Source: a virus. Taken from it: 12,469 bases of DNA. This document shows, piece after piece, positions 7,176 to 7,536 of the stretch. Position numbers and translations under genes: made by a program. A model generated the notes under the pieces. The model saw only the letters and a list, made by a program, of their open reading frames with translations, was not told the DNA's origin and did not search any database. Numbering within the stretch: the stretch's first letter is position 1; each line of letters begins with the position of its first letter. The stretch lies in the UHGV virus genome UHGV-0112027, one strand, 5' to 3'.

Positions 7176-7262
7176 TCTTTTTGCTATCAAACATTTAATA
7201 TCAAAACACATCAACTAATAGCAATAAGTATTGATATCACCAATAGCAATAGCTATTATCAC
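7176..7262 (+). promoter_or_regulatory. OL/PL-like region: rightward promoter TTGATA-N17-TATTAT with overlapping operator repeats
   Basis: -35 TTGATA 7231-7236, exactly 17-nt spacer, -10 TATTAT 7254-7259; AATAGCAAT motif at 7217-7225 and 7242-7250 (same motif as in OR); inverted-orientation copy TTGCTAT at 7181-7187. Confidence 0.5.
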
Positions 7263-7536
7263 CATATCGCAACAACACAACGATACGGCAACCACCTGAT
7301 TCACCGTTGCGATGACCGCTTAGATCCGCAGCTTGAATTTCAGCAGGCTTCGGGGAGTGCGAGGGATGAAACGGACGCGTGAACGTCGGTGTGACCAGCT
7401 GAAATTAACTCAACATTTCATACCTTAGTCGCTTCAACGAGGCGGCTTAGTTATGACAACCGGCGGCCATCCACCGCCTGAATACGCGCAGAAGTCTCTA
7501 TATGTTCAGCAGCCCAGCTTACGGGCAGGAGTTTTT

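Follow-up and report, generated by a model that had tools for sequence, protein, structure and literature searches.

A conserved 96-nt RNA in the nutL/putL position of N-less lambdoid prophages: a candidate early antitermination signal

How does a lambdoid prophage that carries no N gene express the genes of its left operon? The stretch of DNA analysed here (the window; 12,469 nt of the virus genome UHGV-0112027) is the early region of such a prophage, and its features are collected in Table 1. A precedent exists in phage HK022, which is also N-less and in which the put RNA brings about antitermination as RNA only (PMC9378689). HK639 is annotated with putL only, in its left operon. In the right operon, cro and the cII-like gene are separated by 24 nt (4827-4850), which leaves no space for an interval of the nutR/tR1 or putR type; the cII-like gene in turn overlaps the start of O. 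The integrase gene is convergent with the PL operon, whereas in phage 4A7 xis and int are co-oriented with PL. A search of PADLOC with the DUF6414 gene gave no match; at its position 4A7 carries other cargo, a hypothetical protein and an ASCH-domain protein.

Table 1. Features of the window and their coordinates
Feature	Position	Strand	Remarks
cII-like gene, YdaT-type	4281-4826	-	
O- and P-like replication ORFs		-	
cro, YdaS-type	4851-5084	-	
cI-like repressor	5153-5881	+	Peptidase_S24 plus HTH
DUF6414 / phrog_9699 gene	6116-7030	+	304 aa; between cI and PL, in the rexAB 'moron' position
Bidirectional terminator	7063-7080		GC-rich hairpin CCCGGCCACCGTGCCGGG, T-runs on both strands; insulates the cI-moron unit from PL
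OL/PL	7173-7259	+	Three operator-like 16-mers plus promoter TTGATA (7231-7236), TATTAT (7254-7259)
Leader 5' end	7266-7313	+	Holds the 8-bp inverted repeat; small AUCG...CGAU hairpin predicted at 7266-7284
96-nt structured RNA ('NEW' element)	7311-7406	+	Candidate cis-acting antitermination signal
20-codon ORF	7366-7428	+	MKRTRERRCDQLKLTQHFIP; within and just past the 96-nt element; not conserved coding
HP1-HP2 module	7418-7478	+	HP1 7418-7456; HP2 7462-7478, GGCGGCCAUCCACCGCC
kil-proximal conserved leader	7486-7536	+	GCGCAGAAGTCT (7486-7497), GTTCAGCAGCCCAGCTTACGGGCA motif, SD GGAG (7528-7531)
kil	7537-7743	+	68 aa; phrog_294 'Kil protein for bacterial septation inhibition', E 1.3e-37, residues 1-68 (full length)
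gam	7819-8115	+	Pfam Gam, E 3e-65
RecT/bet-like ORF	8121-8906	+	
exo-like ORF	8903-9583	+	
Intrinsic-terminator-like site	10604-10622	+	AGGGAGCTACAGGCTCCTT then TTTTATTATT (GGAGCTACAGGCTCC plus T-run); inside the PL operon
AlpA/xis-like gene	11287-11478		20-nt overlap with the integrase 3' end
Integrase	11459-12451	-	Convergent with the PL operon

The promoter itself had been recognised in an earlier note on this DNA, and we agree with its placement. A promoter scan ranks the site at 7231-7259, with a spacer of 17 nt and 10 of 12 consensus positions, as the most promoter-like in the window. Operator-like 16-nt repeats overlap PL (7173-7188, 7217-7232 and 7242-7257), and the same motif recurs three times between cI and cro, at 5083-5098, 5112-5127 and 5137-5152; because the repeats are common to both regions, the assignment of PL is sound. 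We infer that transcription starts at about 7266. Where a relative carries a different immunity region, its homology to the window sets in exactly at this expected start, 7266.

The 5' end of this transcript contains an 8-bp inverted repeat, ATCGCAAC/GTTGCGAT, which had been taken for a leader hairpin. The repeat is present, although its arms (7266-7273 and 7306-7313) each lie one base further right than had been stated. The stretch 7000-7600 contains 16 inverted repeats of at least 7 nt, this one among them, and by our own estimate about 0.2 perfect 8-mer repeats with loops of up to 50 nt are expected per 277-nt stretch, so that its occurrence is not beyond chance. The hairpin is not conserved: in relatives of the L060/L132 type, the sequence of the 5' arm is replaced and homology starts near 7300. 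Folding of 7266-7345 gave z = -0.26 and that of the whole leader z = -0.05. We treat the stretch 7266-7313 as incidental.

What, then, has become of N? The leader lacks a sizeable reading frame, as had been noticed: neither strand has one of 40 or more amino acids from 7031 to 7452. Between PL and gam there is, in agreement with the earlier note, no N and no cIII, but kil, reported missing together with them, is there; it begins one base past the interval of that note and is annotated as Kil in near-identical phages. None of 10 further ORFs of the window was N-like in a comparison with PHROGs, a collection that leaves even the N protein of phi80 without a function, and the complete annotation of 4A7 lists a Q-like antiterminator protein and no N. 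The 20-codon ORF, read from ATG 7366 to the stop at 7426-7428, exists as described. Its RTRERR resembles an arginine-rich motif, and GGGGAG lies 7 nt upstream of its ATG, as might be expected if the region were the wreck of an N gene and the mini-ORF a leftover of the RNA-binding arm of N.

The comparative data make this origin highly improbable. In 12 of the 13 distinct sequences of the element, position 7366 holds G, which turns the ATG into GTG; the A of the window is the minority allele and weakens a predicted G-C pair. In a sister lineage (L109 type) the second codon of the mini-ORF is TAA, and in L070, L103 and L130 a 5-nt insertion shifts its frame. A tblastn search of 50,697 phage records with the mini-ORF peptide returned only near-identical leaders and no N, and a comparison with PHROGs gave no match. 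The conservation is that of RNA structure, not of codons. Nor does the locus look like debris of a defective prophage: the leader is 96-98% identical in the named, sequenced phages 4A7, 4C10 (Lambda_4C10), Perceval, 1W, 3W and the PhiR series, and of 5426 complete genomes of E. coli, 2231 (~40%) contain it, O157:H7 strains included. The interval 7260-7536 is thus the untranslated 5' leader of the PL operon and not a decayed N gene.

What the leader does contain is a 96-nt element with two hairpins. Hairpin A (7326-7353) is built from the stems 7326-7328/7351-7353 and 7330-7335/7344-7349 and closed by an 8-nt loop, AAUUUCAG (7336-7343), while hairpin B occupies 7371-7390. The two are separated by an invariant linker of 17 nt, and the invariant single strands of the element, GACCGCUUAGA, CGGGGAGUGCGAGGG and GGUGUGACCAGCUGAAA, are G-rich. 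Loop A can pair with the tail at 7399-7406, which would create a pseudoknot. This candidate pairing and the outer helices are invariant across the lineages and hence outside the reach of a covariation test. Independent minimum-free-energy (MFE) folds of both lineages yield the same two-domain architecture. The folding energy of the element alone is unremarkable (z = 0.14 and -1.6), and bona fide put RNAs score about -0.7.

Evidence for the structure comes from a gapless alignment (A2) of 13 distinct element sequences, which fall into two lineages, the second represented by a diverged copy of 82% identity in IMG/VR locus L109. We scored hairpin A, hairpin B and the loop A-to-tail pairing together; standard pairs occupy 95% of the cells, compared with 20-41% when the 3' partners are slid. 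Compensatory double changes occur at three pairs (A-U to C-G, G-C to A-U and A-U to G-C), and since there are just two lineages, these three pairs constitute the covariation support. Over the 96 positions there are 17 differences between the lineages: six belong to the three compensatory pairs and four to the loop of hairpin B, and none of the 17 falls into the long single-stranded blocks GACCGCUUAGA, AAUUUCAG, CGGGGAGUGCGAGGG and GGUGUGACCAGCUGAAA. Conservation and covariation together mark the element as a functional RNA whose nucleotides appear to be kept as RNA structure and not as codons.

A pattern search yielded 18 further element loci, 14 of them of the L109 lineage, and a pattern excluding both known types, run on IMG/VR in search of a third lineage, returned unrelated chance matches alone. 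A covariance model of the element (R1) finds one copy in the window and one in the complete genome of 4A7. No second, PR-side copy was detected by R1 with filters off in the window, 4A7, HK022, phi80 or HK639. Weak 15-bit matches to R1 in L035, L104, L145 and L149 are apparently due to chance and probably lie in coding sequence. We also considered and rejected a long-range stem formed by a 12-nt inverted repeat (7336-7347/7395-7406): the loop-A part alone tolerates variants (U-G, G-U), the substitution G7398T (L141 type) strikes the extension of the repeat, and the partner, C7344, is already paired in hairpin A. Rfam gave no match in the window at the gathering score and chance-level matches at an E-value threshold; as it also misses bona fide put and phi80 nutL, this null result is uninformative.

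All 19 loci recovered with a context-free pattern carry the element 45-62 nt downstream of a PL-like promoter, and these promoters belong to at least 8 operator sets. The window-type element is flanked by one of those sets and, in loci anchored on HP2 (see below), by at least three more. Overall, the element adjoins at least 12 different immunity regions, always just downstream of PL; in the window it begins about 45 nt past the presumed transcription start. In L109, L144, L156 and L147, both flanks are common with HK639, and the element sits exactly at the annotated 'putL-like antiterminator RNA' of that phage. In phi80, HK225 and KO-TP1, the same 5' flank is followed by nutL and an N gene or N analogue. 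L027 presents the order PL, put RNA (104.6 bits with the put model described below), HP1-HP2 and kil with no terminator between them, which is the layout of the window except that put stands where the window has the 96-nt element.

The leader classes also keep apart. The element is present in 61 of the fetched loci, the phi80-type boxA in about 30, put in 24 and an ENT1-type leader in 7-11; the loci were gathered by sequence patterns, and the counts are biased samples. Cross-matches between the NUT80 and ENT1 boxA patterns aside, no fetched locus has two leader classes, and every class is found upstream of HP1-HP2, at a distance of 100-1900 nt and on its strand. Sequence comparison establishes the element as positionally equivalent to nutL and putL in two architectures. 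The gene directly after the element varies: HP1-HP2 and kil, an HNH endonuclease, a TerB-like protein, a zinc-ribbon protein or a 3-codon ORF.

Two further observations concern this slot. In L140 (10361-10400), L142, L143, L145, L148, L149, L152 and L153, the element is directly followed by a strong SD (AGAGGAG) and the 3-codon ORF, ATG AAG CAC TAA (MKH*), which is kept across several immunity backgrounds. A fourth occupant of the slot is found in the Enterobacter phage ENT1 (L138 2560-2745) and in L052, L080, L063, L121 and L123. This leader begins with a boxA-like CGCCTGCTCATTAAGAA and continues with about 170 nt of unrelated sequence, and its flanks are those of HK639 putL.

Is the element then a put RNA in disguise? 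A covariance model built from 8 put sequences (R2) scores the put of L027 at 104.6 bits; applied to 7307-7412 with filters off, it gave no match at E <=10. A local likeness between GGAUGAAACGG of the element and GGAUGAACGG of put, which had suggested homology, was rejected by the same model. The phi80-type boxA pattern is likewise absent from every element-carrying locus. In a literature search that did not extend to the list of known put-like RNAs of King et al. 2011, we found no description of the 96-nt RNA. RNA-based antitermination in an N-less lambdoid phage is of a known kind, that of HK022 put, and the 96-nt RNA fails the test for homology to put. The suggestion of the earlier note that antitermination is organised otherwise here, for instance through RNA, gains real, if indirect, support from the 96-nt RNA in the nutL/putL slot, but not from the elements to which that note had itself pointed.

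Further downstream, the leader of the window holds a second conserved RNA, the HP1-HP2 module. The stem of HP1, variable and covarying, closes around the conserved AUG at 7453 and an SD-like GAG; HP2 is near-invariant. HP1-HP2 folds with z = -4.2 (0 of 200 shuffles fold as well), and an alignment of 20 distinct sequences (A4) displays compensatory changes in 7 of 19 pairs, with up to six pair types per position. Frequent U-G pairs identify the sense strand as the functional one. We collected 128 instances of the module, which is found in HK225, KO-TP1, phi80, HK639, CobraSix, P22-like Salmonella phages and 120 IMG/VR stretches, and also at L015 3001-3060, L016 3001-3047 and L004 about 2501-2563. 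It is common to N-type, put-type and N-less lambdoid phages and absent from Rfam. Usually it stands directly after a canonical tL1 intrinsic terminator, as in all loci of the nut, put and L109 types; only the window type and L027 lack this terminator. The module is preceded by N and the tL1A terminator in phi80 and by gene 44 and a terminator in HK639.

A conserved small ORF (MTTGGHPPP...) was considered as an explanation for HP1-HP2 and discarded. In CobraSix, a spacer shorter by 1 nt puts HP2 into another frame, and the frame in which the conserved GCGCAGAAGTCT is read depends on the context. Since no single frame is kept through HP2 and past it, the constraint acts on the RNA. The module probably serves RNA processing or the translational gating of the kil region. 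The ATG at 7453 lies inside the base of HP1 and shares the frame of kil. Initiation there would extend the protein to 96 aa, which apparently is the form annotated in some database records; the annotation of CobraSix lets the next gene begin at the equivalent ATG. The kil-proximal part of the leader is retained before kil or the next gene in HK225, KO-TP1, phi80, HK639 and Citrobacter, Kluyvera and Enterobacter prophages. Its motifs, GCGCAGAAGTCT and GTTC.GC.GCC..GGC.A.AAGG (7486-7531 in the window), stand just before the kil ribosome-binding site and are kept across Escherichia, Citrobacter, Kluyvera, Enterobacter and Klebsiella prophages, also where PL is about 150 nt from kil.

Several lines of evidence speak for antitermination as the task of the 96-nt RNA: its covariation, its place in the PL leader, the slot equivalence in two architectures, the mutual exclusivity of the leader classes, the terminators downstream, the absence of N and the precedent of put. 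We therefore regard it as moderately probable that the RNA in the nutL/putL slot is a put-like, yet unrelated, cis-acting antitermination RNA. According to this proposal, transcription would set out from about 7266 and the nascent RNA would first fold into the 96-nt element, which would act in cis on the polymerase that has just transcribed it, whether unaided, like the put RNA of HK022, or together with host Nus factors. HP1-HP2 would be transcribed next, with HP1 sequestering the AUG and the SD-like GAG, and then kil from 7537. This polymerase would resist downstream intrinsic terminators, for example that at 10604-10622, and read-through could allow kil, gam, bet, exo and the distal genes to be expressed without N. 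More tentatively, we suggest that the 96-nt RNA might represent a third, undescribed solution to early antitermination, RNA-only, cis-acting and unrelated to put, which would bind polymerase directly and replace N/nut.

The terminators on which such an RNA could act differ between the two lineages. In 8 of 8 L109-type loci, the element and HP1 are separated by a canonical intrinsic terminator, and the same interval of these loci shows no evident N-like ORF. The window type has no terminator directly downstream, and the nearest candidate target is about 3 kb away, which speaks against the proposal. This site, at 10604-10622, precedes the DksA-like and xis-like genes and is conserved in 4A7 (L001 7082-7096), and it is a likely target of read-through.

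In another view, these phages need no early antitermination and the 96-nt RNA is a regulatory RNA of the PL leader with a different job, such as a stable small RNA that is cut out of the leader to act in trans, a determinant of RNA processing or stability, or an attenuator that senses a ligand or protein. The window type and L027 have no tL1A before HP1 and hence no need for antitermination at that point, the 24-nt gap between cro and the cII-like gene offers no space for nutR or tR1, and the element is single-copy; its invariant single-stranded blocks could serve as seed or binding sequences. However, control of a specific gene sits badly with the varied genes directly downstream, the L109-type loci retain a strong terminator after the element, and a different job leaves the exact replacement of putL and nutL in two architectures and the mutual exclusivity of the classes unexplained. 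We consider a role apart from antitermination rather unlikely.

Finally, the element may be a nut-type site that acts through a protein partner, either an unrecognised phage protein or the host Nus factors alone, as in rrn operons. Its location in the nutL slot of phi80-type phages would fit, and so would the candidate parts: a boxA-like invariant CGCUUAGA 1-2 nt before hairpin A, hairpin A itself as the boxB analogue, and the invariant GGUGUGACC after hairpin B with a boxC-like GGUGUG. The likeness of CGCUUAGA and GGUGUGACC to boxA and boxC is, as we see it, a lead only. CGCUUAGA fits about 5 of 8 positions of lambda boxA and is in part helical in both MFE folds, and loop A is, we believe, unlike known boxB loops, which counts against a nut-type site. 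Moreover, there is no N-like gene in the window or 4A7, and no candidate ORF is common to the element loci. N proteins are hard to recognise, as the failure of PHROGs to recognise phi80 N illustrates, and this leaves room for an unrecognised trans factor. Taken together, we find a nut-type site distinctly unlikely, and we return to a cis-acting antitermination RNA as the preferred reading.

RNA-only processive antitermination is known from very few examples, put of HK022 and its close relatives and EAR in Bacillus. If the proposed role is correct, a second, unrelated phage antitermination RNA would reveal which features of such RNAs are essential, and terminator read-through would gain a new, compact genetic part. 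Such an RNA would also account for the N-less expression of recombination, kil and excision genes in a very common group of E. coli prophages. Alongside the element, HP1-HP2 is defined as a second, strongly covarying RNA module.

Among known systems, the put RNAs of HK022 and HK639 come closest. They, too, are cis elements in the early-operon leader of an N-less lambdoid phage, right after the promoter, with a size in the range of about 70-100 nt, two stem-loop domains and conserved unpaired nucleotides. The element occupies the slot of HK639 putL and L027 put and, like put in HK639, is present as a single left-operon copy, whereas HK022 has put copies in both early operons (putL, putR) and the element has no PR-side counterpart. 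Homology between put and the element is detectable neither in sequence nor in structure. The hairpins of put, an RNA of about 70 nt, abut, whereas the 96 nt of the element include the invariant 17-nt linker and a possible loop-tail pseudoknot. The two covariation-supported hairpins of the element differ in spacing and topology from the two stem-loops required of a put RNA. Terminator suppression by put acts in cis and independently of factors, through the zinc-binding domain of the RNA polymerase beta' subunit. With the tL1 region of phi80, the window shares HP1-HP2, which is homologous to the sequence after N and tL1A and overlaps the deposited 't-L1 regulatory signal' feature; the window, however, has no canonical terminator before HP1 and no U-run after its HP2. 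Compared with N-nutL of lambda and phi80, the window is devoid of the N gene, of the phi80-type boxA (UGCUUUUUA) and of the small boxB hairpin. The element nevertheless takes the same position past PL, mosaic relatives have the first ~50 nt of the leader in common, and the role presumed for it is likewise operon-wide.
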